Positions 4,792 through 39,311 of a DNA stretch of 42,018 bases are shown piece by piece. A program made the position numbers and the translations under genes. This DNA is from Prevotella sp. P5-108 (GTDB taxonomy: Bacteria > Bacteroidota > Bacteroidia > Bacteroidales > Paludibacteraceae): positions 1-42,018 of the forward strand of contig CAVHKB010000001.1 in NCBI GenBank assembly GCA_963636305.1. Reading direction: 5' to 3'. Within the stretch, counting starts at the first letter, position 1; each line of letters opens with the position of its first letter. The notes under the pieces are model-generated. The model saw nothing but the letters and a program-made list of their open reading frames with translations, was not told the DNA's origin and ran no database searches.

Positions 4792-4803
4792 CACAATACA
4801 GCA

Positions 4804-6255: not shown

Positions 6256-6935
6256 TGCACCTGCCGATGTACAAAGCCTTTTTCTTCGATATGGATGGTG
6301 TGTTGTTCGACTCTATGCCCCACCATGCAAAAGCCTGGGACATGGTCATGAGCAAGTATGCACTCGACTTCAACGCACACGACACCTACCTGCAGGAAGG
6401 ACGCACCGGTCAAGATGTCATCGAAGAGTGTTACCGAAGGAAATATCATACCTCGCCACCCGAGTCATTGGTCTGGCAAATCTATCACGAGAAGACCGAC
6501 TTGTTCCATCAGTTGGGGGAAACACAACCCGTACAAGGCGTAGCAGAGGTGCTGTATTTCCTTAAGAACCTCCCCTCTTCCCCGCAGTTATGGATCGTAA
6601 CGGGTTCGGGACAGCAGACCCTCTTCGCGCAATTGGAGCAATCTTTCCCCTCCGTCTTTCAGCGCGACAAGATGGTCACCGCCTACGATGTCCGTCACGG
6701 CAAACCCAATCCCGAACCCTATCTGTGCGCCTTCCGACAGTCTGGCTGCAAGAAAGAAGAGTGCATGGTCATCGAGAACGCACCCCTCGGCGTCCGCTCT
6801 GGCAAAGGGGCGGGACTCTTCACTGTCGCCGTCAACACAGGCATCCTCAAGCCCGAAGATCTGTCGCACGAAGGTGCCGATAAGGTCTTCAATTCAATGG
6901 CCGACCTACTCCTGTTCCTGAAAACGCTGTTCTGA
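6255..6935 (+). CDS. HAD-IA hydrolase, beta-phosphoglucomutase/sugar-phosphatase family
   Basis: Motif I FFFDMDGVLFDS, then HGKPNPEPY and ENAPLGVRSGKGAG. The start overlaps the upstream stop (TAATG). ATG 6267 (MYKAFFFDMDG) is an alternative start. Confidence 0.8.
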   Translation: MHLPMYKAFFFDMDGVLFDSMPHHAKAWDMVMSKYALDFNAHDTYLQEGRTGQDVIEECYRRKYHTSPPESLVWQIYHEKTDLFHQLGETQPVQGVAEVLYFLKNLPSSPQLWIVTGSGQQTLFAQLEQSFPSVFQRDKMVTAYDVRHGKPNPEPYLCAFRQSGCKKEECMVIENAPLGVRSGKGAGLFTVAVNTGILKPEDLSHEGADKVFNSMADLLLFLKTLF

Positions 6936-20833: not shown

Positions 20834-23140
20834 TCAGTCGTCAAACCCTGAATCATCCGCCCTCAAACGCTTCAACTGCGTATTAGGAAAATAATGCGCC
20901 AATATCTCTTTGTAACTGTATCCCTGCGTCGCCATAACTGCGGCACCAATTTGACACAACCCCACACCATGACCCCAACCTGCACCATACAGTGTAACCC
21001 CAACTTCCTCACTGTCTGCGTCCTGCTCCCTCTTGACTACAAACGCCGAACTATACAGATGCGACGGCGATAGCCATTTCCGTATTTCCAACTCCTTACC
21101 TACTGTCAACCGTCGCTTACTCCCCACTATCTCCAACTCGTATATGCGACCCGACTCACCCCTCTTCAATGGTATCAACGATTCTATCTCACCAAAATCA
21201 ATACCGCTCTTCTCTCGTACCAATGCCGATAGTTCCGCCACGCTGTAATGTACCTTCCACCGATAAAAATCCTGTGTCTCTTGGTCGTAGGTATTCAGTA
21301 CTTGCGACAAAATAGCATGGTCCTTCGTATTGCAAAAAGCCTCTGGAGATGACATAATCCATGCTTCCGCCTCACTCTCTCGTGTCAAGTCCGGTAGAAC
21401 AGCCTCCCGCGCATCTCTGATAGGGCGCAGATAAGGGTGACTCTCTTCTGCCCAGCAGTGTTCAAAACGCTCCGTCGCACCTCCGCACGACTTATAAAAA
21501 CGCGCATCACATATATGGTTCTCCCATGTAAGCACCTCACCCCAAGTAGCCTTCACCGCTTCTTCTACCGACTTACTGCTTTGGCGGGTAATACCCTGAT
21601 AACGCTGACAATGGTCGTCGGCGCATACATCAAAATGCTTGTGAGCATCACGCTCATACCAACGGATATGGCGCGTAGGTGTGTCCTCCCCGCATACTGC
21701 GTTCCCGCTACCTCCCTCCAACATCGGACGAAGCACCCAACTGCGTGAAATAACCGCATGTGCCTTCAATAGTTCTATATCACTTGCAGCATTCATCTCA
21801 CTCGAAATCACACTCTGCAGATAATCCTCCACCCCAGTCACATTAATAGCCGTTAAATGGTCCTCCTCCACAATTATCTCCAATCCACCTGCGAATCTCT
21901 GTTCTTCTTTACGCTCCCAATGAAAGTGAATGCCTATTACCACATCATGCAACCAGTAGGTGGAATATGCCTCCACCCCAGTAAAAAGCAATCTGTCATA
22001 TAACTTGCCCCTGAAACGAATCTTGCCGTCCTCTAACTCCACACTCTGTTCCCCTGTATATCGACTACCGTCCATACACAGCATATAGTCGCTTTCAAAA
22101 CGGAAGCGTATGCAAGGACTGTACAGCACGCCTACTCGAAGCGTCTTTTGTTGCTTTTCTATCATATTGTCTGTCATTTTAATCTCATCACTGCCTAACG
22201 AAACCTCTCTCACAATCTTCTCCAACAACTCTCCCGTCAACCTCCTGTAACTCTCCGAATCTGCCACAATGGCTATACCACTCATCTCCACACATGCAGG
22301 CGAAATAAGTATTTGAGCCTCTCCTTGCGCAAAGAAACACTTCGGACGCGACTCACTCCGCAGAATAACAAGCAATGCATACTCCTCCCGCTCTGCATCA
22401 TACCACGCAACCAAATTCATTCTCGGCTCCCACTCCGACCTCTCTCGCCCGTGCAATGCACCATAAATACGCAAAAACTGCTCCTTGACACACTCTCTCT
22501 TCAAACCCGCTACATAATACGCCGAACGAGCATAACGGCAAACTTTATAAACCGTCACACCATCCTCTCTCCTCAGCAACTCAATGCCTTCACCTCTTTC
22601 GCACATCCGTTGCAGCGGTAACGCATTATACGGAATCGCTTGAAAATGAAAATGATCAGGTGCCGACGCCCCACAATAAGGACCGTTATAAAATAGGGTG
22701 AAGTGTGGCAACGCCTCACACAACACAAACATATCATCTATATGAGGCAATATAGCCTGATGCTCATGCCTCGCTGACGAAATGGTATAATGTTCCTCAA
22801 AAATAGGAAACGGGTTCACTCGAATACAGTAACACCCCTCTTCTCCCTCATGCAAAGGCGACTGCCAATAGGTTGTCAACTGATTCTCTTCTAACCCGCT
22901 CGGACATAAAAAGCACGCTCGCCGTCGCAAACTCGCTGCATCTACCTCTGCCATAACCGACCTGACGCGCTCTCGGTTGAAGCGTATCTCTACCTCCAAC
23001 CCGTCACAAACACACCGCTTCTTTTCAATGTGCCTCAACTGCATATAATGAGCAGATGCCCGCCCGCAAGAGGCTATCTCGCAAGCAAACATCTGCCGTA
23101 TTCTCTCCTCCAAAGGAGAAACAGAATCAATGCTCATCAT
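20834..23140 (-). CDS. Fusion protein: N-terminal DUF4922/HIT(GalT)-like nucleotidyltransferase-phosphorylase domain plus C-terminal SpoIID/LytB-like domain
   Basis: Continuous ORF. Start set at ATG 23140, which overlaps the GT2 stop as ATGA. HFHFQ (HxHxQ) lies at 22640-22654. SpoIID-type motifs are VISSEM (Glu codon 21797-21799), CADDHCQRYQG and GAGWGHGVGLCQIGA. No signal peptide or TM segment. Confidence 0.7.
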   Translation of the reverse strand: MMSIDSVSPLEERIRQMFACEIASCGRASAHYMQLRHIEKKRCVCDGLEVEIRFNRERVRSVMAEVDAASLRRRACFLCPSGLEENQLTTYWQSPLHEGEEGCYCIRVNPFPIFEEHYTISSARHEHQAILPHIDDMFVLCEALPHFTLFYNGPYCGASAPDHFHFQAIPYNALPLQRMCERGEGIELLRREDGVTVYKVCRYARSAYYVAGLKRECVKEQFLRIYGALHGRERSEWEPRMNLVAWYDAEREEYALLVILRSESRPKCFFAQGEAQILISPACVEMSGIAIVADSESYRRLTGELLEKIVREVSLGSDEIKMTDNMIEKQQKTLRVGVLYSPCIRFRFESDYMLCMDGSRYTGEQSVELEDGKIRFRGKLYDRLLFTGVEAYSTYWLHDVVIGIHFHWERKEEQRFAGGLEIIVEEDHLTAINVTGVEDYLQSVISSEMNAASDIELLKAHAVISRSWVLRPMLEGGSGNAVCGEDTPTRHIRWYERDAHKHFDVCADDHCQRYQGITRQSSKSVEEAVKATWGEVLTWENHICDARFYKSCGGATERFEHCWAEESHPYLRPIRDAREAVLPDLTRESEAEAWIMSSPEAFCNTKDHAILSQVLNTYDQETQDFYRWKVHYSVAELSALVREKSGIDFGEIESLIPLKRGESGRIYELEIVGSKRRLTVGKELEIRKWLSPSHLYSSAFVVKREQDADSEEVGVTLYGAGWGHGVGLCQIGAAVMATQGYSYKEILAHYFPNTQLKRLRADDSGFDD

Positions 23141-24564
23141 TCCTTTCGGGCATTCATGGCTATACGAGCCTTCAACTCCCAAGTGCGTATCCTGTCTTTA
23201 TAGAGGTTGTTCTTGTTCATAGCCTCTATATCACAGTTCGCGTCTGAATTGTCGTCCCAACGACGGCAGTTGTAAACCACTTCATAGATACGACCAATCT
23301 GATACTCCCTGCTCACGCGCAATCCCACTGCATAGTCCTCCCCATATTTGGTGGTAGGGAAATTAATCTTGCGCAATAGCGGAGTATAGAACCCTCGAGG
23401 CGCACCCAATCCATTGATACGGAGTGCATTATTCCTGCCGTTATCTGGTGTCCACTCTCTGTGGTCTATCACGCCAGGAGGAAGAATGTTCCCGTCAAAG
23501 TCTGTCATACGATAGGTACCAACCACCATAGCGCAGTCCTGTTCATGAAAGGCATCTATAAACTTCTGAACCGTATGCTCGTCATAATAGGTGTCGTCCG
23601 AATCCAACTGAATGGCAAAACGACCGCATTTCGGGTGGTGTAGGGCTACATTCCAGTTTCCGCCTATCGCGTGCCAACTCTTATCCTGAGCAATATAAAT
23701 CAAGTTCTCATGACCCTCCGACACAATCTCTCGGATAATATCAACTGTACCGTCTTCAGAATTGTCATCCACAACAATCACGTTGTATTTATACTGCTTG
23801 TCCACCACCTGGTTCAATGCACTGCGTATCGCCGTGCCTATCGTGCGCACCCTGTTCTTGCACGGTATCACTACCGATGCCTCATACTCAAATCCACCCC
23901 CCTGCAAATCTATATCCTTGAATCGGGGAACAAGATATCCACCTATATCCTTCAAGTGTTGCGTGCAGGCTGCCTCCATCTCTATCTGAACACCACGGTT
24001 CTTGGGGTCCACATAGTCAAACAGTTTCTCCCCCGACTTGCGTGTATCCAACTCAACATCGTAATACAAATACTCGTTGATATGCTCCAATGCCCCGTGC
24101 TGACTAACTTTCAACCGCAAATCATACAGTCCCGCATAAGCATAATCCTTGTCCATTCTCTCTACCGCTGCTTTCAGCGCACTCGTGCGATAAAACAACA
24201 CCGAACCGAAATCAAAGTCATCTCGCAATGCGCCCATCTGGTAATCTATCACAGGAGCATTGCTGCGCTCCTCGCCCACCTGGTTAAAGTGGTCCGAGTA
24301 AACCATTGCGGCACCGCTGTCTTCTATCAACGCCTCCATTCGCTCCAAGGCAAACAGCACAAACGATAGGGTGGTGTACTTGGTGTAAATCAAAGTATAA
24401 GGAGTTGTCGTGTGCGAGGCAATAAAGCGCATATTCGCACTACTGCGCATATCTCCCTTCAGGAAATGTATCTCGTTAACGAGCGGTTGTGCCTGCAAAT
24501 TGGCTACGGTCTGTTTCACTTGTTCCTCACTCTGGAACGGAATAAAGCAATCAATGTTTTTCAT
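23137..24564 (-). CDS. Soluble family-2 glycosyltransferase with an additional degenerate GT-A-like N-terminal half
   Basis: Start at ATG 24564 (MKNIDCFIPF). The canonical GT2 half carries VVIPCKNR...VIVVDDNSEDGT...QLDSDD. The N-terminal ~230 aa has a GT-A-like pattern (CFIPF ... MVYSDH). No TM segments. Confidence 0.75.
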   Translation of the reverse strand: MKNIDCFIPFQSEEQVKQTVANLQAQPLVNEIHFLKGDMRSSANMRFIASHTTTPYTLIYTKYTTLSFVLFALERMEALIEDSGAAMVYSDHFNQVGEERSNAPVIDYQMGALRDDFDFGSVLFYRTSALKAAVERMDKDYAYAGLYDLRLKVSQHGALEHINEYLYYDVELDTRKSGEKLFDYVDPKNRGVQIEMEAACTQHLKDIGGYLVPRFKDIDLQGGGFEYEASVVIPCKNRVRTIGTAIRSALNQVVDKQYKYNVIVVDDNSEDGTVDIIREIVSEGHENLIYIAQDKSWHAIGGNWNVALHHPKCGRFAIQLDSDDTYYDEHTVQKFIDAFHEQDCAMVVGTYRMTDFDGNILPPGVIDHREWTPDNGRNNALRINGLGAPRGFYTPLLRKINFPTTKYGEDYAVGLRVSREYQIGRIYEVVYNCRRWDDNSDANCDIEAMNKNNLYKDRIRTWELKARIAMNARKE

Positions 24565-24610
24565 TCTTATGATATGTTTTTTACGGATTATATGGCTATA
24601 ATCCTGTTGT

Positions 24611-26593
24611 TTACAAAATATGATACTGCACAAAGGCCTCTATCGCCTCATAATTGGCTAAACCCAACTGTGCATACAACTCCGCTGTGGCATGATTCCG
24701 GTCCTCTGCACGCTGCCAGAACAAACGCTCATCATTCCCCATAAACGGCGCTGACTCCATCTGACTCTGATGTTTCAATATCGTATTACGCTTGAAACGC
24801 AACTCTTCAGGCGACATCGGAACTGCCATCTCTATCAAATCCACCTCCCATTCCATCCAAGCACCTCTGTACATCCAAATGCGGCACTTCTGCAACCATT
24901 TCTCTTTGTCCTTCAGTTCGTCTATCGCAGCCAACACTGCGTCCAAACATACCTTGTGCGTACCATGCGGGTCCGCTAAGTCACCGGCAACAAACATCTC
25001 GTCTGGCTTTATCTCTACCAATAGACGCTTCACAATATCAATGTCCTTTTGCGACAAATCACCCTTCTTTATCGTCCCCGTCTCATAGAACGGCAGATTC
25101 AAAAAGTGTATGTGAGAGGTCGGCAATCCCATATGACGGCATGCCGCTGTCGCTTCACCCCTTCGGATAAGTGCCTTGATATCCAATATCTCACGAGTAT
25201 CTCTGTCGTCCTTTTTCTCGTTGAACAAGTAATGAGTGTACTCGTTATACTTCTCCTCAATCACCTTGTCCTCCGGGCTGTGCATCTGACCGAAACCGCG
25301 CATGAAGTCCATAAAACGAACCACCTCGTCATCACACACCGCAATACAACCGCTCGTCTCGTAGGCTATATGCACATCATGACCTTGCTTAATCAAACGG
25401 GCAAATGTGCCACCCATCGAAATCACATCATCATCCGGATGCGGCGAAAATATCAACACTTTCTTTGGATATGGCTTTGCACGCTCAGGACGGTTACTGT
25501 CGTCCGCGTTGGGCTTACCACCCGGCCAACCTGTAATCGTGTGCTGCAAATCGTTGAAGATTTTTATGTTGCAGTTATAAGCCGAACCATAAATAGTTAT
25601 CAACTCGCTCAAACCGTTCTCGTTGTAGTCTTTGTTCGTCAGTTTCAGTATAGGCTTGCCCGTTTGCTGGCACAACCATACTATGGCACGCCGTGTCAAC
25701 TGGTCGTCCCACTCGCAAGAGGTCAACAACCACGGACACTTTAGTCTTGTCAACTGACCCGCTGCCGATAAGTCCAACACTACCTCCGCATTCGAATGTA
25801 ACTGCAAAGCAGAGGCAGGACACGACGGGTTACACTGCTTCTCCACTGCCGCACGAATCTGTGCCGACTTGTGTTCTCCCCAAGCAACCATAACTACCCG
25901 CTTCGCCCGAAGTATAGTACCCAAACCCATCGTTATGGCACACATCGGCACCTGCTCAACCGAACCGAACAGATTGGCGGCATCATTCTTCGATACATTG
26001 TCCAACACCACCAAACGGGTCGGACTGTTAAACTGCGTACCAGGTTCGTTGAAACCGATATTGCCGCCGCGACCGATTCCCAACAACTGAAAATCAACTC
26101 CGCCCATATCTTGCAACTTCTGCTCATAATCCATACAAGCATTCAGTATATTGCTCTTCTCCTGCGTGCCGTCTATCGTGAACACATTCTCTGCCTGAAT
26201 GTCAACCTGGTCCAACAACTGCTCTTTCAACTGACCAAAACAACCCTGCAGATTGTCTGTCAACGGGTAGTATTCAAACAGGTTGAATATAACCACATTC
26301 CTGAAACTCAGCCCCTCCTCCTTATGCAAACGCACCAATTCTTCGAACACATCAGTCATGCTCCTGCCTGCAACAAGCGACAAGATGGCAAACGAATGTT
26401 TCTTCTGCTTCGCCAGAATAACTTCCGCTATCTGACGCGCTACATACTTCGCACCTTCCTGTGCACTCGAACAAATATGCGTGTGGAGAAGTTCAAAACG
26501 GGTCAAACGCGACAACTCAAATACATCGTCCGTTTGGTAAAGTTTCTTCGCTATGTGAGTCAGCGAAATCTGTGAACTTAAATTAGTTCTCAT
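24611..26593 (-). CDS. Fusion protein: NagB-like sugar-phosphate deaminase/isomerase-fold domain plus PIG-L/LmbE-family deacetylase domain
   Basis: Start at ATG 26593 (MRTNLSSQ). NagB-like blocks are VVIFNLFEYYP and LGIGRGGNIGFNEPG. LmbE motifs are IFSPHPDDDVISMGG (HPDDD at 25427-25441) and DPHGTH. TACCTTTG -7 box at 26671-26678. Confidence 0.75.
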   Translation of the reverse strand: MRTNLSSQISLTHIAKKLYQTDDVFELSRLTRFELLHTHICSSAQEGAKYVARQIAEVILAKQKKHSFAILSLVAGRSMTDVFEELVRLHKEEGLSFRNVVIFNLFEYYPLTDNLQGCFGQLKEQLLDQVDIQAENVFTIDGTQEKSNILNACMDYEQKLQDMGGVDFQLLGIGRGGNIGFNEPGTQFNSPTRLVVLDNVSKNDAANLFGSVEQVPMCAITMGLGTILRAKRVVMVAWGEHKSAQIRAAVEKQCNPSCPASALQLHSNAEVVLDLSAAGQLTRLKCPWLLTSCEWDDQLTRRAIVWLCQQTGKPILKLTNKDYNENGLSELITIYGSAYNCNIKIFNDLQHTITGWPGGKPNADDSNRPERAKPYPKKVLIFSPHPDDDVISMGGTFARLIKQGHDVHIAYETSGCIAVCDDEVVRFMDFMRGFGQMHSPEDKVIEEKYNEYTHYLFNEKKDDRDTREILDIKALIRRGEATAACRHMGLPTSHIHFLNLPFYETGTIKKGDLSQKDIDIVKRLLVEIKPDEMFVAGDLADPHGTHKVCLDAVLAAIDELKDKEKWLQKCRIWMYRGAWMEWEVDLIEMAVPMSPEELRFKRNTILKHQSQMESAPFMGNDERLFWQRAEDRNHATAELYAQLGLANYEAIEAFVQYHIL

Positions 26594-26670
26594 AATGTTG
26601 TGATTAGTTGGTATTATAGGGTTAACAGATGTGGTACTGCCCTCGAAAAGGCTTGCACCGTTCTGCGCTG

Positions 26671-26678
26671 CAAAGGTA
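26671..26678 (-). promoter_or_regulatory. -7 element TACCTTTG (minus strand) for the NagB-like/GT2/SpoIID-like operon
   Basis: The reverse complement of CAAAGGTA matches TAnnTTTG, 78 nt upstream of start 26593. Confidence 0.55.
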
Positions 26679-26845
26679 AACATTCTTACAATCCCCACCA
26701 AATTTTATTGCATAAATCCACGCTCGTGCCTCCTGCTTCTTTCAATCGGAATTCCACCAACCCGCCTTCCCCCTCTTCCCTCCCCGTCCGCTCCCTCTCA
26801 CTGCGCTTTTTTTGTCGTATTTGTATCGAGGTTTTCCCGTACCGT

Positions 26846-26889
26846 AACCGAAGCATAACCGAAGCATAACCGAAGCATAACCGAAGCAT
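26846..26889. repeat. Perfect 11-bp tandem repeat AACCGAAGCAT x4
   Basis: Read directly at 26846-56, 26857-67, 26868-78 and 26879-89. Confidence 0.95.
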
Positions 26890-26907
26890 TAGCGCAAAAC
26901 AACCACT

Positions 26908-26940
26908 CCAAAAACATTCCAATAACACGCCAATAACAAT
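26908..26940. repeat. Three 11-bp units CCAAAAACATT CCAATAACACG CCAATAACAAT
   Basis: Read directly. It lies 19 nt downstream of the AACCGAAGCAT array in the same intergenic region. Confidence 0.8.
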
Positions 26941-27098
26941 CCGCTGACCTATCTTCTGCGCACCGCTATGCAAGCGTGGTCGCAAAGGGGGAATGTCCCC
27001 AATCTCTTGATTCCCTTCGGTTTCCTGTCCCAATTCGTTTTATCGCCATTTCCCATTGCAATTTTTAGCCAAATGTTGTGCTGTTTCCAAAATCTTTG

Positions 27099-27106
27099 TA
27101 CCTTTG
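27099..27106 (+). promoter_or_regulatory. -7 element TACCTTTG for the kinase-murQ operon
   Basis: Exact TAnnTTTG match 63 nt upstream of ATG 27169. It overlaps the small palindrome CTTTGC-C-GCAAAG (27102-27114). Confidence 0.55.
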
Positions 27107-27168
27107 CCGCAAAGTATTGCCTGCAAGGGCAAGATAAATGGTGAACACATAATTATAATAGAAATACC

Positions 27169-28026
27169 ATGATTTTAATCGCTGACAGTGGTTCTACCAA
27201 AACCACATGGACACTCATGGCTGCTAACAGCCAAACTTCCGAGTTCTCAATGGACGGTATCAATCCTTTCTACCAGACTTCCGACGCCATTAAGAACTCT
27301 ATCGTCACACAACTCCTTCCCCAACTCTCCCACCTACTCTGGGCGGGGACTATAACTGACATCTATTTCTATGGTGCAGGATGTACACCCGAGAAAACCA
27401 AATTTGTCATATCTGCACTCGAAGGCTCGTTCAAAACTGCCAAAGCCCATGTCGAAAGTGATATGGTCGGTGCAGCAAGAGGACTGCTCGGGCGGACGCA
27501 AGGTATCGCCTGCATTCTTGGTACAGGCTCCAACTCCTGCCTCTACGACGGAGAAAAAATCATCAAGAATGTACCCGCACTCGGCTTTATTCTCGGCGAC
27601 GAAGGCAGCGGTGCTGTACTTGGCAAACGCCTCGTGGCAGATGTACTCAAAAATCAGTTGCCCGAACATATCAAAAACAAATTTCTTCAGCAATACAACC
27701 TCACGCAGGCGGAAATCATAGAGAATGTCTATCGCAAACCTTTCCCCAACCGATACCTCGCCTCTCTTTCCAAGTTCGCTGCCGAAAACATACAGGAAGA
27801 ATCCATCTACAACCTCGTTTACGAGCATTTCCGTCAGTTCGTCATCCGTAACCTCAAGCAGTATCCTTCTCTGCCCGTCGGATTTATCGGCTCCATTGCT
27901 TACTACTATGCCGATGTTCTCCGCAAGGTCATGAACGACAACAATATGCAAGTCGCACAAATACTCCAGTCGCCCATGCCAGGACTCGTGAAGTATCATG
28001 CACAAGATGCCAAACCGACTAACTGA
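27169..28026 (+). CDS. BadF/BadG/BcrA/BcrD-type ASKHA sugar kinase (GlcNAc / MurNAc kinase, MurK-like)
   Basis: 285 aa with MILIADSGSTKTTW (phosphate-1), ILGTGSNS (phosphate-2) and ILGDEGSGAVLG (adenosine motif). It sits directly upstream of murQ. Confidence 0.7.
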   Translation: MILIADSGSTKTTWTLMAANSQTSEFSMDGINPFYQTSDAIKNSIVTQLLPQLSHLLWAGTITDIYFYGAGCTPEKTKFVISALEGSFKTAKAHVESDMVGAARGLLGRTQGIACILGTGSNSCLYDGEKIIKNVPALGFILGDEGSGAVLGKRLVADVLKNQLPEHIKNKFLQQYNLTQAEIIENVYRKPFPNRYLASLSKFAAENIQEESIYNLVYEHFRQFVIRNLKQYPSLPVGFIGSIAYYYADVLRKVMNDNNMQVAQILQSPMPGLVKYHAQDAKPTN

Positions 28027-28033
28027 TAACGAT

Positions 28034-28852
28034 ATGTTTGCAAAAATAACCGAACAGCCCTCCCTACACGATAACCTCGACCAGAAATCTGTACACGAAC
28101 TATTGGTCGAAATGAACGAAGAGGACAAAAAAGTACCTCTCGCCGTCGAGAAAGCAATACCGCAGATAACCAAACTCGTCGAACAAATCGTACCACGAAT
28201 GAAACAGGGAGGACGAATCTTCTACCTTGGAGCAGGCACTTCAGGACGACTCGGCGTACTCGACGCAAGCGAAATACCACCTACCTTCGGTATGCCTCCT
28301 TCACTCGTCGTAGGACTCATCGCCGGTGGTGACACCGCCCTCCGTAATCCCGTCGAGAAAGCCGAAGACGACCTCGAAAGAGGATGGCAGGACCTCCAGA
28401 AATACAACATCAATTCCTCCGACATTCTCATCGGTATCGCCGCTTCAGGCACAACGCCCTATGTCATAGGCGCACTCCGACACGCACGCGAACAGGGAAT
28501 ACTCACCGCTTCTGTCTCCTGCAATCCCGACTCGCCCGTCGCAGCCGAAGCCGACATACCTATCGAGGCAATAGTAGGTCCCGAATTCGTTACAGGTAGC
28601 ACACGGCTCAAATCCGGCACCGCACAAAAACTCATCTGCAACATGATAACCACCACTACCATGATACAACTCGGACGAGTCAAAGGCAATCGGATGGTCA
28701 ATATGCAACTGACCAACAAGAAACTTGTCGACAGAGGAACCCGTATGCTCGTCGACGAACTCGGCATCGACTACGAACAGGCAAAGCATCTCCTGCTCAT
28801 TCACGGCTCTGTCAAAGACGCACTCGACGCCTGGCAACAACAGAAAAATTAA
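28034..28852 (+). CDS. murQ: N-acetylmuramic acid 6-phosphate etherase
   Basis: SIS-domain protein with YLGAGTSGRLGVLDASEIPPTFG, GIAASGTTPYV and the TGSTRLKSGTAQK blocks typical of MurQ. Start chosen at ATG 28034, 8 nt after the kinase stop. Confidence 0.85.
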   Translation: MFAKITEQPSLHDNLDQKSVHELLVEMNEEDKKVPLAVEKAIPQITKLVEQIVPRMKQGGRIFYLGAGTSGRLGVLDASEIPPTFGMPPSLVVGLIAGGDTALRNPVEKAEDDLERGWQDLQKYNINSSDILIGIAASGTTPYVIGALRHAREQGILTASVSCNPDSPVAAEADIPIEAIVGPEFVTGSTRLKSGTAQKLICNMITTTTMIQLGRVKGNRMVNMQLTNKKLVDRGTRMLVDELGIDYEQAKHLLLIHGSVKDALDAWQQQKN

Positions 28853-28889
28853 AATAAACAAACACCGAAAATACTATTATAGCCCGAAA

Positions 28890-28907
28890 ATATGTTGTAA
28901 AACATAT
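28890..28907. promoter_or_regulatory. Inverted repeat ATATGTT-GTAA-AACATAT, candidate operator upstream of the SusC promoter
   Basis: Perfect 7-bp arms with a 4-bp spacer, 33 nt upstream of the -7 box. No T-tract follows, so it is unlikely to be a terminator. Confidence 0.3.
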
Positions 28908-28939
28908 AATGATGGGGTATAATTCTCGTAAAATTGTAT

Positions 28940-28947
28940 TACCTTTG
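28940..28947 (+). promoter_or_regulatory. -7 element TACCTTTG for the SusC/SusD locus
   Basis: Exact TAnnTTTG match 72 nt upstream of ATG 29019. Confidence 0.55.
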
Positions 28948-29018
28948 CGACGAACTTTTTGGCAACCTTATGCGCTGTATAAGTAATCGCCTTAAGTTCT
29001 TTCAATTAACAAACCGTA

Positions 29019-32000
29019 ATGCGCATGAAAAAAACATTGCTCTTACTTGCTTGTGTTGCTTCAACCCTCTTCGCTTGGGCTGACATCACTGTTACAGGCA
29101 TAGTAACTTCCAAAGACGACGGACAACCCGTCATCGGGGCTACCGTCCTCGAAAAAGGAACTACCAATGGTACAATAACCGACTTCGACGGAAACTACCA
29201 ACTCAAAGTCGCCGACAAGGCTACACTCGTAGTCAGTTATGTCGGCATGAAAACACAAGAGGTCAAGGTTACAGGCATGAAGCATAATGTCGCACTCGCT
29301 ACAGAAGCCATCGCTATGGAAGAAGTAGTCGTCACCGCTATGGGCGTCGTACAAGAGAAAAAGCGAATGAATTTCGCAGTGCAGAATGTAACCTCCGAAT
29401 CTATCACCGCAAGCAAATCTGCTAACTTCGTCAACTCTCTGCAAGGGCAAATAGCAGGCGTCACTGTCACTAACTCAAGCAGTTCTCCTAACGCCGGCTC
29501 ACAAATCATCGTACGAGGCATATCCTCCATCAATACTGCCCAATCCAACGAACCTTTGTTCATCATGGATGGGGTCCCCTTAAGTGGAGGCGCATCTTCT
29601 GCTGCCGACATCAACCCTAACGACATCGAGAATGTAACCGTCCTCAAGGGTGCTGCGGCTTCTGCACTATACGGACAAGATGCTGCCAACGGCGTCATTA
29701 TGATTACAACCAAACGCGCACAAGCAGGTAAAATATCGGTCGCCGCTAATGCAAGTTGGCAGTTCGATACTCCCTACCGACTGCCAAATATTCAAAAAAG
29801 TTATATACCAGGCTCACAAGGTATCTATGTCGATAAAGCACAGGGAGGATGGGGTCCGTTGCTTAATCCTGGAGAGCAGATATATGATAACCTCCATAAC
29901 TTCTTCAACACAGGCTTCTATCACAAATACGATGTCAGCGTAACCGGCGGTACCGAGAAGTTCCAGGCTTATGCCTCCGCAAACTGGTCCAAAAACGACG
30001 GTATCATACCCAACGACTATAAGCAACGCTTTGGTGGACTCGTAAAAGCAACCTACAGCCCCGCTAAATGGGTCACCATCAATGCTTCTATCAATGTCAT
30101 GCAAAGCGACTCCCGCTCCACCTCCGCCGATGCAATCACAGGCACTTCAGCAATGAGCAGCCTCTATGGATGGTCAAATACAGATGATATAACCGACTAT
30201 CAACTCTCCACTGGATATCCGCGCTATATCTACTACAACGACTCCAAAAAATACAACTCCACCTATAGCCCGCTCTACGGTATCTACAACGACGGCGGAC
30301 AATCCACCTCCCTGCGTAATGTCATGAACGCTTCCGTCACATTCAAACCTGTCAAAGGGCTTGAAATCGTAGGACGCGTAGGTTACGACACCAGCAGTTC
30401 CACCTCCGAGACCTATGGGGTACCCCGTTGGGACGACTCCTATGTAACACAGTCCTATACCAAACCTACCGAACCATCAGATCCCGGCTCCACTGCTACA
30501 GCGGAAGAAAAAGCCGCCTACCAGGAGGCACTCAAAGAGTACAATACCAACCTCGCTCTCTACAACTCCTACCAGGACTATCTCAACGGCGCATATCAAA
30601 CCGACCCCTATCTCACAACCAACGACATCGCCAACATGGACAAAGCCAAACTCGGCAAGTATTCCTCCTCTGCCGGACGAAGCCAACTGCTTACTGCAGG
30701 CTTCATGGCAACTTACCGCTTGGACCTTCCAAAGGACTTCGGTATGGACTTCATGGCAGGTGGCGAGTTGAAGGCATCTAAGGGCTTCTCTATGACCAAC
30801 AGCGGTGTCGATTTCGTCATACCAGGTGTTTACTCCCTCTCCAATACTAACCCCAACGAGGTATATCTCACCGACCGTACACTCACACACTCGCAACGAC
30901 GCACCTTCGGCTACTACTACGAAGTTCGAGCCGACTACAAAGGACTTGCTTCGCTCTCTGTAACAGGACGATGGGACTGGTCCTCCACACTCAAGACTTC
31001 CCCCTACTTCTATCCGTCCGTAACAGCAGGTATCGTATTCTCTGAACTCATACCCGGACTCAATGAGACGAAAAACAACTGGTTCTCCTACGGTAAACTG
31101 CGGGGCAACTATGCAGTCGTAGGTAAAGATGCGCCAATCTATCTATTCGACCGACGCTACAAACAGTTCGCTAACTATCCCGACAACGGCTATGGTATCG
31201 ACCCTACACGCTCTTCGGCATCTGCCGATTTGCAGCCCGAAATGTCCTACTCATGGGAAATAGGTCTCGACCTCCGTTTCTTCGATAACCGTACACGCCT
31301 CGACATGGCATACTATTCCACCAAAGTCGATAACCAAATCGTAACCGTACGCGTCTCACCTGCCTCAGGCTATATCTTGCAAACCCGTAACGAAGGTGCC
31401 ATCCGTAATCAAGGTATGGAACTCACTTTGGAACAAGACATCATTCGCCGTAAGAATGTAAAGTGGACAGCAGCACTCAACTTCGGACTCAATCGCGGCA
31501 AGGTGGTCAGCCTGCCCGAGAATGTATCCGAGATAACGGGTCCCCAATACACCGACATCTTTACATCGGCTTACCTCGGTGGGTCCACCACAGGTCTTAC
31601 CGGTAAAGACTATCTGCGTACCGACGATGGCAGAATAATCTGCGATAGCGAAGGCTACCCGCAAATCAACCCCAACAAGAACCTCTATATCGGTAACCGC
31701 GAGGCGAAATTCTCTGCAGGTCTCCGTAGTACCCTCGATGTTTATGGCGTACAACTCTCTTTCTTGTTCGACGGACGGTTGGGAGGCGATGTGGTCAACA
31801 TAACGGGACGCTCCCTCATCTCTAACGGACAATCGGCTATGCTCGAGAAATATCGTGGACGGCAAGTTGTGTTCGATGGCGTCGTCGACGATGGCAATGG
31901 CAACTATGTTCCCAACACCAAGCCTATCACGCTCGACTATACCACCATCACCAACTATTTCTACAATGTGTCCTCCAACTTCATCGAAGATGGCTCCTAC

Positions 32001-32243
32001 ATACGGCTTAGTTACGTTACCGTAGGATACGATTTCGCACAACTCATGAAGTCGCAGAAAGTACTCAAAGGACTGAACCTCTCTTTCACGGCAAACAACC
32101 TTTTTGTACTCACTAAGTACACGGGAACCGACCCGCTCTGTAATGCGTCCACCTCTGGTGGCGGTACAGGCTCTGCAGGCGTCGATAACTATCCCGTGCC
32201 TTCCACAAGAAGTTATAATATATCCCTTAATGTTAAATTCTAA
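29019..32243 (+). CDS. SusC/RagA-family TonB-dependent outer-membrane transporter
   Basis: 1074 aa. Signal peptide, carboxypeptidase-regulatory-like domain (ITVTGIVTSKDDGQPVIGATV...DFDGNYQLKV), plug (NVTVLKGAAASALYGQDAANGVIMITTKR), and a C-terminal beta-barrel ending in F. There is no N-terminal STN signalling domain. ATG 29025 is an alternative start. Confidence 0.9.
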   Translation: MRMKKTLLLLACVASTLFAWADITVTGIVTSKDDGQPVIGATVLEKGTTNGTITDFDGNYQLKVADKATLVVSYVGMKTQEVKVTGMKHNVALATEAIAMEEVVVTAMGVVQEKKRMNFAVQNVTSESITASKSANFVNSLQGQIAGVTVTNSSSSPNAGSQIIVRGISSINTAQSNEPLFIMDGVPLSGGASSAADINPNDIENVTVLKGAAASALYGQDAANGVIMITTKRAQAGKISVAANASWQFDTPYRLPNIQKSYIPGSQGIYVDKAQGGWGPLLNPGEQIYDNLHNFFNTGFYHKYDVSVTGGTEKFQAYASANWSKNDGIIPNDYKQRFGGLVKATYSPAKWVTINASINVMQSDSRSTSADAITGTSAMSSLYGWSNTDDITDYQLSTGYPRYIYYNDSKKYNSTYSPLYGIYNDGGQSTSLRNVMNASVTFKPVKGLEIVGRVGYDTSSSTSETYGVPRWDDSYVTQSYTKPTEPSDPGSTATAEEKAAYQEALKEYNTNLALYNSYQDYLNGAYQTDPYLTTNDIANMDKAKLGKYSSSAGRSQLLTAGFMATYRLDLPKDFGMDFMAGGELKASKGFSMTNSGVDFVIPGVYSLSNTNPNEVYLTDRTLTHSQRRTFGYYYEVRADYKGLASLSVTGRWDWSSTLKTSPYFYPSVTAGIVFSELIPGLNETKNNWFSYGKLRGNYAVVGKDAPIYLFDRRYKQFANYPDNGYGIDPTRSSASADLQPEMSYSWEIGLDLRFFDNRTRLDMAYYSTKVDNQIVTVRVSPASGYILQTRNEGAIRNQGMELTLEQDIIRRKNVKWTAALNFGLNRGKVVSLPENVSEITGPQYTDIFTSAYLGGSTTGLTGKDYLRTDDGRIICDSEGYPQINPNKNLYIGNREAKFSAGLRSTLDVYGVQLSFLFDGRLGGDVVNITGRSLISNGQSAMLEKYRGRQVVFDGVVDDGNGNYVPNTKPITLDYTTITNYFYNVSSNFIEDGSYIRLSYVTVGYDFAQLMKSQKVLKGLNLSFTANNLFVLTKYTGTDPLCNASTSGGGTGSAGVDNYPVPSTRSYNISLNVKF

Positions 32244-32257
32244 TTCCGTTGCGCTAT

Positions 32258-34057
32258 ATGAAATCAATCAACTATCTCAGTGTATGTATGGCGTCAGTCC
32301 TGCTCTTGACTGGTTGCAACGACTTCCTCGATGTCAACACAACCAAAGATGACCCCACTACCGTAACGGTCGACCAAATACTGCCGACTCTCTGCTTCTA
32401 TGCCTCACAGATATGCTACGACCATGCCGAATATGGCGTCTATATGTCACAGGCACTCACCACAGGCGATAAGTCACAAACAGGATCCTACCCCTATAGT
32501 CAGGGATGGGAATTCCTCAGCGTCAACCGTCACCCTATGTGGAGACGGCATTTCTACGACCTCGGGGCAAATGCCAACGCCATGTTCGAACTGACGGCTA
32601 AAAACGGCTCGAAAAACTACGAACTCATCGGGCGTACACTCGTGCTGCAATCCACCATGTTCACCACCGATGTGTTTGCCGATATGCCTCGCTCCCAAGC
32701 CTATACCGTCACTTCTCCCAAGTACGACTCGCAACAGGAAATCTACGATTGGATGTTCTCCGAAGCCGACCAACTCGTCAGCCTCTACCAAGACCCTGCT
32801 TGGACCAACGGCGCACAAGCACTGCCTATAAGCGAAAAATCCGACCGTATCTACAAAGGCGATATGAATAAATGGGCTGCCTACACCAAAGCACTCCGTT
32901 GCCGTCTGTGGCTGCGCAAACTTCCTAACTGGGACAACACACCCACCACCTGCCAACAACTCGTGGCTATGGTCGACGATGTACTCAACGACCCCAACTG
33001 GGAAGAACCTCTCTACAACTACCCTGGCGGTAAAACAGAGTCCAACTGCCCGTGGGGACCTGCTGCTCCGAAAATAAATTCGTGGGAAAGTCGTAACAAC
33101 CGACTTGCTTCCTCCATACCGACCAAGTTCTTCGCCTATGCTGTCTTGGGAGGATATACGGGCAGTTCTCTCAACACATCCGACTATCGCTTCGCATTGG
33201 ACCCCCGTGCCGAAATGATAATGACTCCCCGCACCAACAAAGATAATAGTCAGGCATTGCGCTGGTTGGAGAGCAACATAGGTAAGGATGAAAACAATAA
33301 ATATACCTACTACCCCGACCTCTATGCCACCGATGCCGGAACCAATCCTTATACCAAAAACGATGGCTATATCGCTCTGATAACCACCGAAGAACTGCTC
33401 TTCATCAAAGCCGAAGCACTCTATTGGATGAACCAGAAAGCCGAGGCATACAATGTCACAAAGCAAGCCGTCGAACGCAATATGCAACGCTATGGCATCA
33501 ATGTAGGAGCATTGACCAAAAAAGAACAAAAACGCTACGACCTCTTCATGTCTGTCCGTCTTCCGGGTGAGTCCGTGTTCACCATTGCTGACCTCATGCA
33601 GCAGAAATTTGTGGCTATGTACTTGCAACCCGAACAGTGGACCGACCTCCGCCGCTATAACTATTCCAGCAAAACCAACGGCATATTCTACGATGGCGTT
33701 CCTGTCTATACTGTGTCAACCTGTCTGACAAAGCACAGTCCGATTGCTCTGTCACCTTCCAACTTCACCACCGAGTATAGCCTGCGCCGACCCTACAACC
33801 TCTATGCTGCCTATTGGGACCAACCCGACTGCTACGAAGACCCTTCCACCAAAGCCGTCTATTCGCCTAACGCTTGGGTCAATCGCCTGAACCCCGATAC
33901 CGAAACGGAAACAAAATACAACAAGAAAGAACTCATCCGTATCGGCGCGTGCGATGCGGCAGGAAATGTCGACTACCATTGGATGCAGAAACACATGATT
34001 TGGGCAATGAAGAACTCTTCGGTCTGCACCGTATCTAACAATATAGAATGGAAATAA
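32258..34057 (+). CDS. SusD/RagB-family nutrient-binding outer-membrane lipoprotein
   Basis: Lies immediately downstream of SusC. Lipobox LLLTGC followed by NDFLDVN, typical of SusD N-termini. ATG 32249 is an alternative start. Confidence 0.85.
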   Translation: MKSINYLSVCMASVLLLTGCNDFLDVNTTKDDPTTVTVDQILPTLCFYASQICYDHAEYGVYMSQALTTGDKSQTGSYPYSQGWEFLSVNRHPMWRRHFYDLGANANAMFELTAKNGSKNYELIGRTLVLQSTMFTTDVFADMPRSQAYTVTSPKYDSQQEIYDWMFSEADQLVSLYQDPAWTNGAQALPISEKSDRIYKGDMNKWAAYTKALRCRLWLRKLPNWDNTPTTCQQLVAMVDDVLNDPNWEEPLYNYPGGKTESNCPWGPAAPKINSWESRNNRLASSIPTKFFAYAVLGGYTGSSLNTSDYRFALDPRAEMIMTPRTNKDNSQALRWLESNIGKDENNKYTYYPDLYATDAGTNPYTKNDGYIALITTEELLFIKAEALYWMNQKAEAYNVTKQAVERNMQRYGINVGALTKKEQKRYDLFMSVRLPGESVFTIADLMQQKFVAMYLQPEQWTDLRRYNYSSKTNGIFYDGVPVYTVSTCLTKHSPIALSPSNFTTEYSLRRPYNLYAAYWDQPDCYEDPSTKAVYSPNAWVNRLNPDTETETKYNKKELIRIGACDAAGNVDYHWMQKHMIWAMKNSSVCTVSNNIEWK

Positions 34058-34071
34058 CTTCTCTTACGACT

Positions 34072-34929
34072 ATGAAACACTCCCATATATTCGTTCTCGC
34101 ATTCGCTCTGCTCGCTTGCACTGCGTGCGATAAACATGACTTCATCGACGACCTCGTCATCACTGGTAATGTCGGACCTCAACCCTATTGGGTGGTCGAG
34201 AGTTCTGTCGTAACGGCAGGTGCCGATGTACCGTTCACTGCGCAGTACTATACAAGCGTCAATGGCGTTTCTATCGACCGCTCCGAAGTGTGGTACAATG
34301 TCACCGAAAACCTCGAGAAAGTGGTTACTTGCCCGTGGACAAAAAGTTTCACGTACTCCATCTCTAAAATCACCGCTTCCGAAATGCGTATCTCCCAAAA
34401 GATAAAGACTTTCCCTCATAAGGATGTTGCCGTATGGAACGACTCCATCCATGCCTACTATTTCGAAGGGACTTTCCCCGTAAGCAGTACACTCGCTTCT
34501 TTCAAATGGGAAAAACCTGCACACTACGACAACGAGAACTTTCTGAAGTATTTCGGCGAAGACTATAAACAGCATTTCAAAGATAGTCTTTATAACCTCC
34601 TTAAATACGACGATTTCAGTAATATCATTAAAGGAGCAGGTCTGCGCGATAATTTCCAGGAGTTTACCGACTCCACTTTCGATGCCAATACCAATCAGTG
34701 GGTACGACACTTCAAGTGGAACGCCGACTCCACCGACACGCCTGTTCCTGAAAAAGTAACCGAACTCTATCAGGATAGCGTTTCTTTCGAACAACTGATT
34801 TTCAATTCCGGTGAAAACTGCTACGACATCACCTACAAGCGTACCTACCAGATACGCGCACTCCTCCGTGTTTACGACGACCGAAATGTCTATGGTACTA
34901 CGGTGGCTAAAGATATAGAAATCAACTGA
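34072..34929 (+). CDS. Lipoprotein of unknown function (in the position of a SusE/F-like surface glycan-binding protein)
   Basis: Start at ATG 34072 (MKHSHIFVLAFALLACTAC, signal peptide plus lipobox). I recognise no catalytic motif. Confidence 0.6.
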   Translation: MKHSHIFVLAFALLACTACDKHDFIDDLVITGNVGPQPYWVVESSVVTAGADVPFTAQYYTSVNGVSIDRSEVWYNVTENLEKVVTCPWTKSFTYSISKITASEMRISQKIKTFPHKDVAVWNDSIHAYYFEGTFPVSSTLASFKWEKPAHYDNENFLKYFGEDYKQHFKDSLYNLLKYDDFSNIIKGAGLRDNFQEFTDSTFDANTNQWVRHFKWNADSTDTPVPEKVTELYQDSVSFEQLIFNSGENCYDITYKRTYQIRALLRVYDDRNVYGTTVAKDIEIN

Positions 34930-34945
34930 TAAATCCTGTTTTGCT

Positions 34946-36643: not shown

Positions 36644-36646
36644 ACA

Positions 36647-39211: not shown

Positions 39212-39311
39212 AAAAGAAATAATATAAGATAACAAATTAACCGTTGTGGAGTACCGCTTGACGGGTCTTGCGGAACAAAACGACAATTTACTAACATTAA
39301 TCTATCTATTT

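Follow-up and report, generated by a model that had tools for sequence, protein, structure and literature searches.

A conserved cytoplasmic glycosyltransferase, HIT and SpoIID-like module of Bacteroidota and its proposed role in peptidoglycan-fragment salvage

The 42,018-nt stretch of Prevotella sp. P5-108 DNA analyzed here (contig CAVHKB010000001.1, positions 1 to 42,018; hereafter the window) carries three co-oriented minus-strand open reading frames (ORFs), g1, g2 and g3, which encode a NagB-like domain joined to an LmbE domain, a tandem GT-A glycosyltransferase, and a fusion of DUF4922 (a HIT domain of the GalT type) with a SpoIID-like domain, respectively. On balance, we favor the view that g2 and g3 represent a conserved cytoplasmic three-enzyme module, which processes GlcNAc-MurNAc (GlcNAc, N-acetylglucosamine; MurNAc, N-acetylmuramic acid) or GlcNAc-1,6-anhydroMurNAc imported by an AmpG-type permease. 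The cluster has already been described as a unit of transcription in a single species, Tannerella forsythia, and its three central enzymes are uncharacterized. The original prediction, made from the window's sequence, had presented the gene set as lacking an experimentally assigned role. This stands, as the literature on DUF4922, on SpoIID-AmpG in Bacteroides, on NagB-LmbE proteins and on the T. forsythia (Tanf/TF) locus yielded no experimentally assigned function; the gene set itself is less novel than supposed, its T. forsythia counterpart being co-transcribed with ampG and murTKQ (PMC5388701).

A recurrent GT2, DUF4922 and SpoIID-like unit beside an AmpG-type permease

Our sample consisted of 80 genome loci encoding g3 relatives, from Bacteroidaceae, Prevotellaceae, Odoribacteraceae, Marinifilaceae, Prolixibacteraceae, Paludibacteraceae, Dysgonomonadaceae and Ignavibacteria-like metagenome-assembled genomes (MAGs), in which all ORFs were clustered and the recurrent clusters named using Pfam and NCBIfam. 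The family 2 glycosyltransferase (GT2), DUF4922 and SpoIID-like proteins were encoded by separate genes in 24 of the 80 loci, by a GT2 gene and a DUF4922-SpoIID fusion (the type found in the window) in 7, by one gene for a single GT2-DUF4922-SpoIID protein of 1240-1336 aa in a further 7 (Prevotella and Hoylesella), and by a GT2-DUF4922 fusion together with a SpoIID-like gene in 3. The order of the genes or domains was constant in the 41 loci with these four main architectures, the window's g2 and g3 fusion following the same GT2, DUF4922, SpoIID order, and was rearranged in 4 loci. GT2 was adjacent or fused to DUF4922 in 50 loci, and the SpoIID-like domain was fused C-terminal to nucleotide-dependent cytoplasmic domains in 14. 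An exhaustive HMMER search with the DUF4922 half of g3 gave 1293 representative clusters, of which the best 150 displayed only SpoIID, GT2 and (once) GNAT as fusion partners. Because of this Rosetta-stone pattern of fusions, we propose that the three activities are functionally coupled, and that GT2, HIT and SpoIID-like proteins work together as one module across the phylum, a grouping that is apparently new.

The tightest association observed was that of the SpoIID-like gene with a gene encoding an AmpG-family MFS permease, which was present in 52 of the 80 loci, immediately followed the SpoIID-like gene in 49, and remained paired with it where GT2 and DUF4922 were missing. AmpG is the fixed partner of the GT2-HIT-SpoIID module, an association that, too, seems not to have been described. 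Other recurrent neighbors were a MurK-like kinase (18 loci), NamZ (12), MurQ (10) and a MurT-like transporter (9), as well as a sodium-solute symporter, a secreted Golvesin_C/fn3 protein and a D-lactate-type FAD/FeS dehydrogenase; the Ignavibacteria-like loci add a NagK-like kinase and a GH3 NagZ-like/PBP4B-like fusion. It is owing to the AmpG, NamZ, MurT, MurK and MurQ neighbors that we assign the module to the salvage of peptidoglycan (PG) fragments, and we consider it somewhat probable that it belongs to a Bacteroidota salvage locus comprising an AmpG-type permease, NamZ, MurT, MurK, MurQ and a D-lactate-type dehydrogenase. As for the permease itself, a variant of ~620 aa with a ~190-residue insertion between the MFS halves (cluster 5) takes the place of the 430-aa form in Prolixibacteraceae, Draconibacterium and others (loci L014, L037, L038, L040-L043, L048, L050-L052, L056 and L080).

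These neighbors also bear on the role first suggested for the T. forsythia cluster, that of a 'glycosylation-related operon', in which the genes would serve the modification of surface or S-layer glycoproteins, or the synthesis of an exopolysaccharide (EPS) or other envelope glycan. Both the level of the TF1061 glycosyltransferase and surface glycoprotein modification are altered in a gppX mutant (PMC5706477; PMC5388701), and among named NCBIfam families the GT2 domain comes closest to EPS or teichuronic-acid transferases, all of these matches being far below cut-off. However, the effect of gppX is pleiotropic, no triad member possesses a transmembrane segment, and the annotated clusters that recur in at least 4 of the 80 loci include no flippase, polyprenyl-phosphate transferase or Wzx/Wzy, the conserved neighbors being those of PG-fragment import and MurNAc catabolism. 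We therefore regard a glycosylation operon as very unlikely.

The original prediction had further treated g1, g2 and g3 as one operon. What is co-inherited, however, is GT2, DUF4922 and the SpoIID-like protein plus the AmpG-type permease, while g1 is absent from 74 of the 80 loci, adjoining GT2 in the other 6 and additionally in locus L081. This adjacency is restricted to close relatives of the window and to one Paludibacteraceae lineage, in which a g1 homologue (79% identity) heads the GT2/SpoIID cluster; elsewhere, the neighbor of g1 is an APH-family kinase or a DUF4301 gene. Since g1 adjoins GT2 only in these relatives and is found in unrelated contexts elsewhere, we place it outside the conserved unit: it is a lineage-specific operon passenger, which here happens to be the first gene. 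In L081, a lipoate-ligase-like gene located between GT2 and SpoIID was considered as a substitute for DUF4922 and dismissed, as it encodes a true LplA (TIGR00545, 233 bits), its insertion there being probably unrelated. Three loci derive from contigs titled 'Firmicutes bacterium CAG:95' (L002), 'uncultured Clostridium sp.' (L003) and 'Coprobacillus sp. CAG:698' (L045); the loci themselves, whose identity to g3 is 88%, 74% and 55%, respectively, are clearly of the Bacteroidales type, and the MAG records are probably mislabeled or mis-binned.

Domains, catalytic residues and location of the three proteins

All six domain calls of the original prediction were upheld by profile, PDB and AlphaFold/Foldseek searches (Table 1), and the motifs that it quoted (SPHPDDD, DPHGTH, VVDDNSEDGT, QLDSDD, HFHFQ, SSEM, CADDHCQRYQG and GAGWGHGVGLCQIGA) are all present in the translations. 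Its placement of all three proteins in the cytoplasm was likewise borne out, with no signal peptide or hydrophobic segment of transmembrane grade in any of them (maximal 19-residue Kyte-Doolittle means of 1.26, 0.96 and 1.64 for g1, g2 and g3, respectively).

Table 1. Features of the window discussed in the text
Feature	Position	Strand	Remarks
g1: NagB-like + LmbE, 660 aa	24611-26593	-	
NagB-fold domain, g1 residues 43-266	25796-26467	-	
LmbE/PIG-L zinc deacetylase domain, g1 residues 380-557	24923-25456	-	
g2: tandem GT-A glycosyltransferase, 475 aa	23137-24564	-	
GT-A-like N-terminal domain without canonical DXD, g2 residues 1-170	24055-24564	-	
Canonical GT2 domain, g2 residues 227-437	23254-23886	-	PF00535
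g3: DUF4922 + beta-rich linker + SpoIID-like fusion, 768 aa	20834-23140	-	
Two-lobed HIT fold, GalT branch (DUF4922), g3 residues 1-330	22151-23140	-	
Beta-rich domain preceding the SpoIID core, g3 residues 333-425	21866-22144	-	AF2 secondary structure, invariant columns
SpoIID/LytB-type domain, g3 residues 426-768	20837-21865	-	
TACCTTTG, Bacteroidetes-type -7 promoter box, 78 nt upstream of g1 start	26671-26678	-	
Mirror TACCTTTG box for the divergent kinase-murQ unit	27099-27106	+	
MurK-like ASKHA sugar kinase, divergent partner	27169-28026	+	
MurQ, MurNAc-6-phosphate etherase	27998-28852	+	NF003915 381 bits (cut-off 168); TIGR00274 321 (302)
NamZ-type exo-beta-N-acetylmuramidase	271-1506	+	Clusters with NamZ_N/NamZ_C proteins
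FAD/FeS D-2-hydroxyacid (D-lactate-type) dehydrogenase	1457-4318	+	In 3 triad loci

The g3 product, a core member of the module, combines DUF4922 (Pfam, 1e-42, 146 bits) with SpoIID (9e-24) in a fusion shared by thousands of database homologues, and its AF2 model is of good quality (pLDDT 85, pTM 0.77). All of 24 diverse homologues share the DUF4922 residues C76-x-x-C79, H117, H125 and H163-x-H165-x-Q167, and H163, H165 and Q167 are also invariant in 58 close homologues. By analogy with GalT, we take C76, C79, H117 and H125 to be a GalT-type metal site, and the HxHxQ motif to provide the nucleotidyl-accepting His. In a profile search, the nearest solved relative of DUF4922 was yeast Apa2, an Ap4A phosphorylase (8.6e-7), and Foldseek paired the N-terminal half of g3 with Apa2 (7e-9), ADP-glucose phosphorylase (2h39) and GalT (1hxq) over ~320-360 columns, such that g3 possesses both the HxHxQ motif and the two-lobed fold with a Cys/His site that mark this family. 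By analogy with these enzymes, DUF4922 may catalyze nucleotidyl transfer between a nucleoside diphosphate (NDP)-sugar and phosphate or a sugar-1-phosphate. DUF4922 also has GNAT partners: a GNAT gene lies between GT2 and DUF4922 in loci L066, L068, L071, L072 and L076 (Ignavibacteria-like and other non-Bacteroidales lineages), and a GNAT domain is fused to the N-terminus of DUF4922 in L079 (19220-20518) and in protein P0499.

The SpoIID-like domain of g3 scored well above curated cut-offs (PF08486, 84 bits against 23; TIGR02669, 180 bits against 83, 7e-53), and Foldseek matched the C-terminal half to SpoIID 5i1t with a TM-score of 0.77. Its SSEM aligns with the ASEM/AGEM of SpoIID structures 4rwr and 5i1t, E448 of this catalytic-Glu motif is invariant in 58 homologues, and the CADDHCQRY and GWGHGVGLCQ motifs are retained as well. 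The beta-rich domain that precedes it, which also occurs at the N-terminus of stand-alone cytoplasmic SpoIID-like proteins, harbors an invariant FHWERKE-type motif (H407, W408, R410, E412 and Q414).

To our knowledge, the SpoIID/LytB domain family is otherwise extracytoplasmic, which together with the retained catalytic Glu would suit an ordinary periplasmic lytic transglycosylase ('TfLytB') that acts on foreign or own PG, GT2 and DUF4922 being unrelated neighbors. The finding that T. forsythia extracts make anhydro-disaccharides from PG (PMC7670621) would suit it too. Nevertheless, an extracytoplasmic location applies to neither the fused nor the stand-alone homologues: none of the ~170 family proteins examined has a signal peptide or transmembrane-grade segment, and the SpoIID-like protein carries neither a signal peptide nor a membrane anchor at any of 79 homologous loci. 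Because it lacks both and is fused behind nucleotide-dependent cytoplasmic domains, not only in the 14 loci mentioned above but in thousands of database proteins, the SpoIID-like 'LytB' product must, as judged from its sequence, be cytoplasmic, which is apparently a new finding, and the periplasmic alternative is highly improbable. In eleven Paludibacteraceae loci (L020-L027, L029, L033 and L034), the SpoIID-like gene occurs without GT2, DUF4922 or AmpG and is immediately followed by a MATE efflux gene; in 9 of these 11, a gene for a 168-aa membrane protein also immediately precedes it. The enzyme may serve another purpose in these loci.

The second core member, g2, matched Pfam Glycos_transf_2 (PF00535, 8.5e-23, 81.5 bits, cut-off 23.3) in residues 230-364 only, its N-terminal half having no Pfam match. 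Foldseek searches with the AlphaFold model (pLDDT 75) related it to the chondroitin polymerase K4CP (2z86/2z87), which has two GT-A domains, over ~550 columns, and also to LH3 and ColGalT1. In an alignment of 28 diverse homologues, the GT2 domain displayed invariant D266, D321-S-D323-D324, E409-D410 and C-R-R-W (433-436), besides numerous invariant Arg and Asn residues; g2 thus has the Pfam match, the nucleotide-binding Asp, the DXD and the acidic pair of the GT2 family. In the same alignment, the N-terminal domain had no canonical or invariant DXD: 25 of the 28 homologues have D91, D107 and D115, which are replaced by N, E and N in the other three, and the DXD in each of two GT-A domains that characterizes bifunctional enzymes of the K4CP/PmHAS type is not found. 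The original prediction was therefore right to call this half degenerate, and since it has no canonical DXD, we liken it to an accessory GT-A domain rather than to a second transferase site. We also considered it as a sugar-1-phosphate nucleotidylyltransferase and rejected this, as it has no GxGTR-type motif and no Pfam match, and Foldseek points to an accessory GT-A domain. Overall, g2 is much better conserved than g3, the 120th-best g2 cluster still being 72% identical, while identity to g3 is already down to 45-50% by about the tenth homologue.

The NagB half of g1, to which the original prediction gave a sugar-phosphate deaminase/isomerase fold, did match Glucosamine_iso (5e-19) and NCBIfam NF002557, a 'glucosamine-6-phosphate deaminase-like protein' (983 bits), but its score in the deaminase model TIGR00502 was 186, below the cut-off of 236.9. 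Compared with NagB structures (PDB 2bkv, 3hn6 and 1cd5; E. coli numbering), g1 has F106 in place of Asp72, G176 in place of Asp141 and N178 in place of His143, and retains Glu148 and Lys208. These replacements (Asp72 by F/Y, Asp141 by G/S/C and His143 by N) occur in 119-121 of the 121 members of the family alignment. Judging by these residues, the NagB half is not a canonical glucosamine-6-phosphate deaminase, and the family-wide nature of the loss is apparently new. The loss of Asp72, Asp141 and His143 likewise led us to reject g1 as a simple bifunctional NagA/NagB that converts GlcNAc-6-phosphate to fructose-6-phosphate. It also poses an annotation problem, since this 660-aa Bacteroidales protein is widely annotated as 'glucosamine-6-phosphate deaminase' and lacks the catalytic residues of one. 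The LmbE half matched PIG-L (PF02585, 7e-19, 69 bits, cut-off 28), and the SPHPDDD and DPHGTH motifs of LmbE/PIG-L enzymes are present in all 120 g1 homologues compared, making a deacetylase activity plausible by sequence. We found no tested function for the NF002557 domain fusion in the literature. In another Bacteroidales lineage (L083, 9020-10060), a g1 homologue (75% identity) is followed by a 346-aa APH-family phosphotransferase with no NCBIfam match.

Operon layout and surroundings in the window

The coordinates of the original prediction proved correct: the three genes are co-oriented, g1 and g2 are separated by 46 nt (24565-24610), the g2 stop overlaps the g3 start in an ATGA at 23137-23140, and a 575-bp region (26594-27168) separates g1 from the divergent kinase gene. 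The chosen starts agree with the lengths of the database homologues of the three proteins (660, 475 and 768 aa). The TACCTTTG promoter box ahead of g1 is real as well. The exact box occurs 5 times in the window, compared to ~1.3 copies expected by base counting, and all 5 copies, including one at 28940 ahead of the SusC/SusD genes, lie ~30-80 nt upstream of gene starts in the correct orientation. The looser TAnnTTTG was not enriched in the window (26 observed, 24 expected), and so we dropped it as a genome-wide promoter predictor and treated only the exact TACCTTTG as informative; internal promoters are accordingly possible inside the apparent operon. A scan for terminators gave nothing convincing within or after g1-g2-g3. 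The divergent promoter region also contains a perfect 11-nt tandem repeat, TAACCGAAGCA, in 4.1 copies (26845-26889), followed by a looser 11-nt array (26907-26942, 3.3 copies, 80% matches), and these repeats could be operator or regulator-binding sites for the divergent units.

The original prediction had also proposed that g1, g2 and g3 form a self-contained pathway, in which HIT would activate a sugar-1-phosphate, GT2 polymerize it, LmbE de-N-acetylate the product and the SpoIID-like domain cleave the resulting internal glycan. The three genes are indeed tightly packed behind one promoter box, and the D, DxD and ED motifs of GT2 are accompanied by an xRRW resembling QxxRW, the motif of processive family-2 synthases. 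There is also the similarity of the tandem GT-A fold to K4CP, the GNAT-DUF4922 fusion of some lineages would fit a GlmU-like activation, and g1 heads the GT2/SpoIID cluster in the Paludibacteraceae lineage too. Yet an N-terminal GT-A domain without a canonical DXD leaves a bifunctional polymerase unsupported, g1 is missing from most triad loci and occurs in unrelated contexts elsewhere, and no glycan has been reported. Moreover, the partner of the module is an importer, AmpG, whose import activity was demonstrated in T. forsythia (PMC7670621), along with catabolic genes. The proposal thus lacks specific support, the neighbors pointing instead to imported PG fragments, and we consider it quite unlikely.

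What did hold was the link drawn to MurNAc and cell-wall recycling, as NamZ, MurQ, a MurK-like kinase and SusC/SusD are all encoded in the window. Against T. forsythia MurK (8oqw) the kinase scored 286 bits, compared with 254 bits against the MurK paralogue K1058 (8oqk); its lactyl-site motif is PAL, where MurK has SPL. Across our loci, kinases beside MurT/MurQ carry the SPL motif (L007, L042, L045, L047, L049 and L050), and in those located 5' of the triad the motif is RSL or KAA and so begins with a basic residue, like R132-A133 of K1058 (L007, 7514-8362; L045, 4884-5732). The dehydrogenase shares cluster 32 with a FAD-oxidase_C, FAD_binding_4 and CCG protein, its GlcD/YdiJ-like NCBIfam matches being below cut-off, and could plausibly consume the D-lactate that MurQ releases. 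The window's link to PG import would follow, by analogy, from the MurK and MurQ neighbors and from orthology with the AmpG-linked loci.

Downstream of the MurK-like and MurQ genes and on the same strand lie SusC (29019-32243) and SusD (32249-34057), followed up to 41840 by genes for an unknown 293-aa protein, a PKD-domain protein, a glycosyl hydrolase-like 10 (GHL10) protein (854 aa) and an unknown 864-aa protein. Altogether, 27169-41840 looks like a candidate PG polysaccharide utilization locus coupled to MurNAc catabolism. At the other end of the window (271-6935), the genes for NamZ and the D-lactate-type dehydrogenase precede those for CYTH, DUF4301 (694 bits) and a HAD protein that scored above the NCBIfam cut-off for BT2127-type inorganic diphosphatase; in another Bacteroidales lineage (L085, 9101-10453), a g1 homologue adjoins a DUF4301 gene. 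A PDB sequence search with DUF4301 gave no match, and the pyrophosphatase-type neighbor suggests that DUF4301 releases pyrophosphate, e.g., in a nucleotidyl transfer.

A proposed salvage route, its alternatives and known systems

Assuming that the module processes AmpG-imported disaccharides, we propose the following route. First, E448 of the SpoIID-like domain would open the 1,6-anhydro ring at C1 of MurNAc in a reverse lytic step, with water or phosphate as the acceptor (in a vacant +1 site), thereby substituting for AnmK; alternatively, the SpoIID-like domain would cut MurNAc-beta-1,4-GlcNAc bonds in imported oligomers. Second, GT2 would attack the GlcNAc-beta-1,4-MurNAc bond to form a nucleotide-sugar, which HIT, by way of a nucleoside monophosphate (NMP) adduct (His165-NMP), would exchange with phosphate to yield N-acetylhexosamine (HexNAc)-1-phosphate and regenerated NDP, the net reaction being an NDP-catalyzed phosphorolysis that would replace NagZ. 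We estimate this step at ~+5 kJ/mol under standard conditions, and so consider it feasible overall when pulled by MurK. A separate nucleotide carrier (ADP or GDP) would fit the purine-nucleotide preference of the nearest HIT relatives. Third, MurNAc would pass through MurK and MurQ to GlcNAc-6-phosphate and D-lactate, the latter being passed on to the dehydrogenase. Finally, in the lineage of the window, g1 would probably deacetylate an N-acetyl-amino-sugar phosphate downstream of MurQ. A further scheme, in which reversed SpoIID and GT2 reactions would convert 1,6-anhydroMurNAc and UDP to UDP-MurNAc, was discarded, as we estimated it at ~+15 kJ/mol with a sub-nanomolar product.

Several points weigh against this route. 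Domain identities, catalytic motifs, cytoplasmic location, fusion patterns and synteny were observed directly, whereas substrates, direction and products are what we infer from them, and the specific chemistry of the steps, taken on its own, is doubtful. We know of no precedent for the in vivo reversal of a Leloir GT2, nor for the opening of a 1,6-anhydro ring by a lytic-transglycosylase fold, and we estimate that running GT2 backward against the UDP-GlcNAc pool of the cell would be unfavorable unless ADP or GDP is the carrier. GT2 and SpoIID occur without DUF4922 in Proteiniphilum and Odoribacter, and the SpoIID-like gene stands alone in 24 loci, 11 of them the MATE-linked ones. The GH3 NagZ-like gene of some loci weakens the idea that NagZ is replaced, the GNAT domains fused or adjacent to DUF4922 fit a biosynthetic, GlmU-like direction better than phosphorolysis, and a K1058-type kinase (in T. 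forsythia, L007 and L045) could be the AnmK analogue instead. In the 42-kb window itself there is no AmpG or other MFS gene, nor murT, the next gene encoding a CrtI-family oxidoreductase. Lastly, orthology with Tanf_08350, 08355 and 08360 of T. forsythia was drawn from annotation and gene order, not from sequence. A route free of both NagZ and AnmK, with the SpoIID-like protein as an ATP-independent anhydroMurNAc ring opener and GT2/HIT as an NDP-catalyzed disaccharide phosphorylase yielding MurNAc and HexNAc-1-phosphate, in T. forsythia as well, is accordingly no more than a speculative proposal.

Some of these points are better accommodated if the enzymes run in the biosynthetic direction, with HIT (assisted by GNAT in lineages that have one) making an NDP-HexNAc from HexNAc-1-phosphate, GT2 transferring it onto imported GlcNAc-(anhydro)MurNAc or MurNAc, the SpoIID-like protein cleaving or rearranging the product (cf. 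MalQ/MalP), and a K1058-type kinase serving as the AnmK analogue. By our thermodynamic estimate, Leloir glycosyltransferases normally run forward, and both the GNAT-DUF4922 fusions of P0499 and L079 and the GNAT genes between GT2 and DUF4922 would be accounted for. K1058, which lies just upstream of the T. forsythia cluster, binds MurNAc tightly (Km ~30 uM) yet has a turnover ~200-fold below that of MurK, and according to PMC10465942 its 'natural substrate is not MurNAc'; in L007 and L045, kinases of its type, with a basic lactyl-site residue, are located 5' of the triad. On the other hand, a nucleotide-sugar would be spent during salvage for no obvious benefit, SpoIID-like and AmpG pairs occur without GT2 or HIT, and no product is known, and so we hold this variant to be unlikely.

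If the salvage route is correct, it would reveal new activities for the lytic-transglycosylase, HIT and GT2 folds, as well as a drug target in T. forsythia, a pathogen that is auxotrophic for MurNAc. The module may explain how Bacteroidota reuse imported wall sugars. As PG fragments are ligands of NOD1 and NOD2, and Bacteroidota dominate the gut and subgingival microbiota, the consumption of muropeptides would shape what the host sees. It also offers concrete candidates for two puzzles of T. forsythia, namely its use of GlcNAc-anhydroMurNAc without AnmK and the role of gtf and lytB beside ampG.

Compared with solved enzymes, each domain shows a mixture of shared and divergent traits. The g3 C-terminal domain shares with SpoIID/LytB (4rwr, 5i1t) the fold, the SEM Glu and GHGVG(M/L)xQ, and its C-x-D-x(1-2)-H-C-Q-x-Y motif resembles that of C. 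difficile SpoIID; it differs in its cytoplasmic location, its extra beta-domain, its fusions to HIT and GT2 and its non-sporulating Gram-negative hosts. The HIT domain has the two-lobed fold, HxHxQ and Cys/His site of the GalT branch (Apa2 4i5t, 2h39, 1hxq and VTC2/GDPGP1), the GDP-L-galactose phosphorylase VTC2/GDPGP1 being a eukaryotic member of Pfam DUF4922 itself, but is only ~15% identical to the solved enzymes and belongs to a bacterial clade linked to GT2 and SpoIID-like proteins. With K4CP, LH3 and ColGalT1, g2 shares two GT-A domains, a soluble chain and a C-terminal DXD (14-16% identity), and in lacking a canonical N-terminal DXD it is nearer to the accessory domains of LH3 and ColGalT1 than to K4CP. 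As for g1, it shares the fold, Glu148 and Lys208 with NagB, from which it differs by the three replaced residues, and the zinc motifs with LmbE deacetylases (MshB, BshB and diacetylchitobiose deacetylase).

Among whole systems, the closest is the T. forsythia operon Tanf_08345-08385 (TF1059-1067), which consists of 'xanthan lyase', gtf, gtf, lytB, ampG, namZ1, murT, murK and murQ, is a single transcript by reverse-transcription PCR and is activated by GppX (PMC5388701). Its gtf genes are listed as of 'unknown' function and its lytB as a putative lytic transglycosylase (bioRxiv 10.1101/2021.12.02.470905). TfAmpG imports GlcNAc-MurNAc and GlcNAc-anhydroMurNAc, and no AnmK was reported in this species (PMC7670621). 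In content and order, the operon corresponds to the majority architecture of our loci (Golvesin_C, GT2, DUF4922, SpoIID-like, AmpG, NamZ, MurT, MurK, MurQ), and it has GT2, DUF4922, SpoIID, MurK(-like), MurQ and NamZ in common with the window. Unlike it, the window has DUF4922 and SpoIID fused, neither ampG nor murT within its 42 kb, murK and murQ placed divergently rather than downstream, and a NagB-like/LmbE gene at the head of the operon. The recycling pathways of E. coli and Pseudomonas (AmpG, NagZ, AmpD, AnmK and MurQ; AmgK-MurU) have in common with the proposed route an AmpG-type importer of GlcNAc-anhydroMurNAc, cytoplasmic processing and an exit through MurQ into GlcNAc-6-phosphate; but whereas these proteobacterial pathways operate without GT2, GalT-type HIT or SpoIID-like enzymes, the permease of Bacteroidota is coupled to all three.

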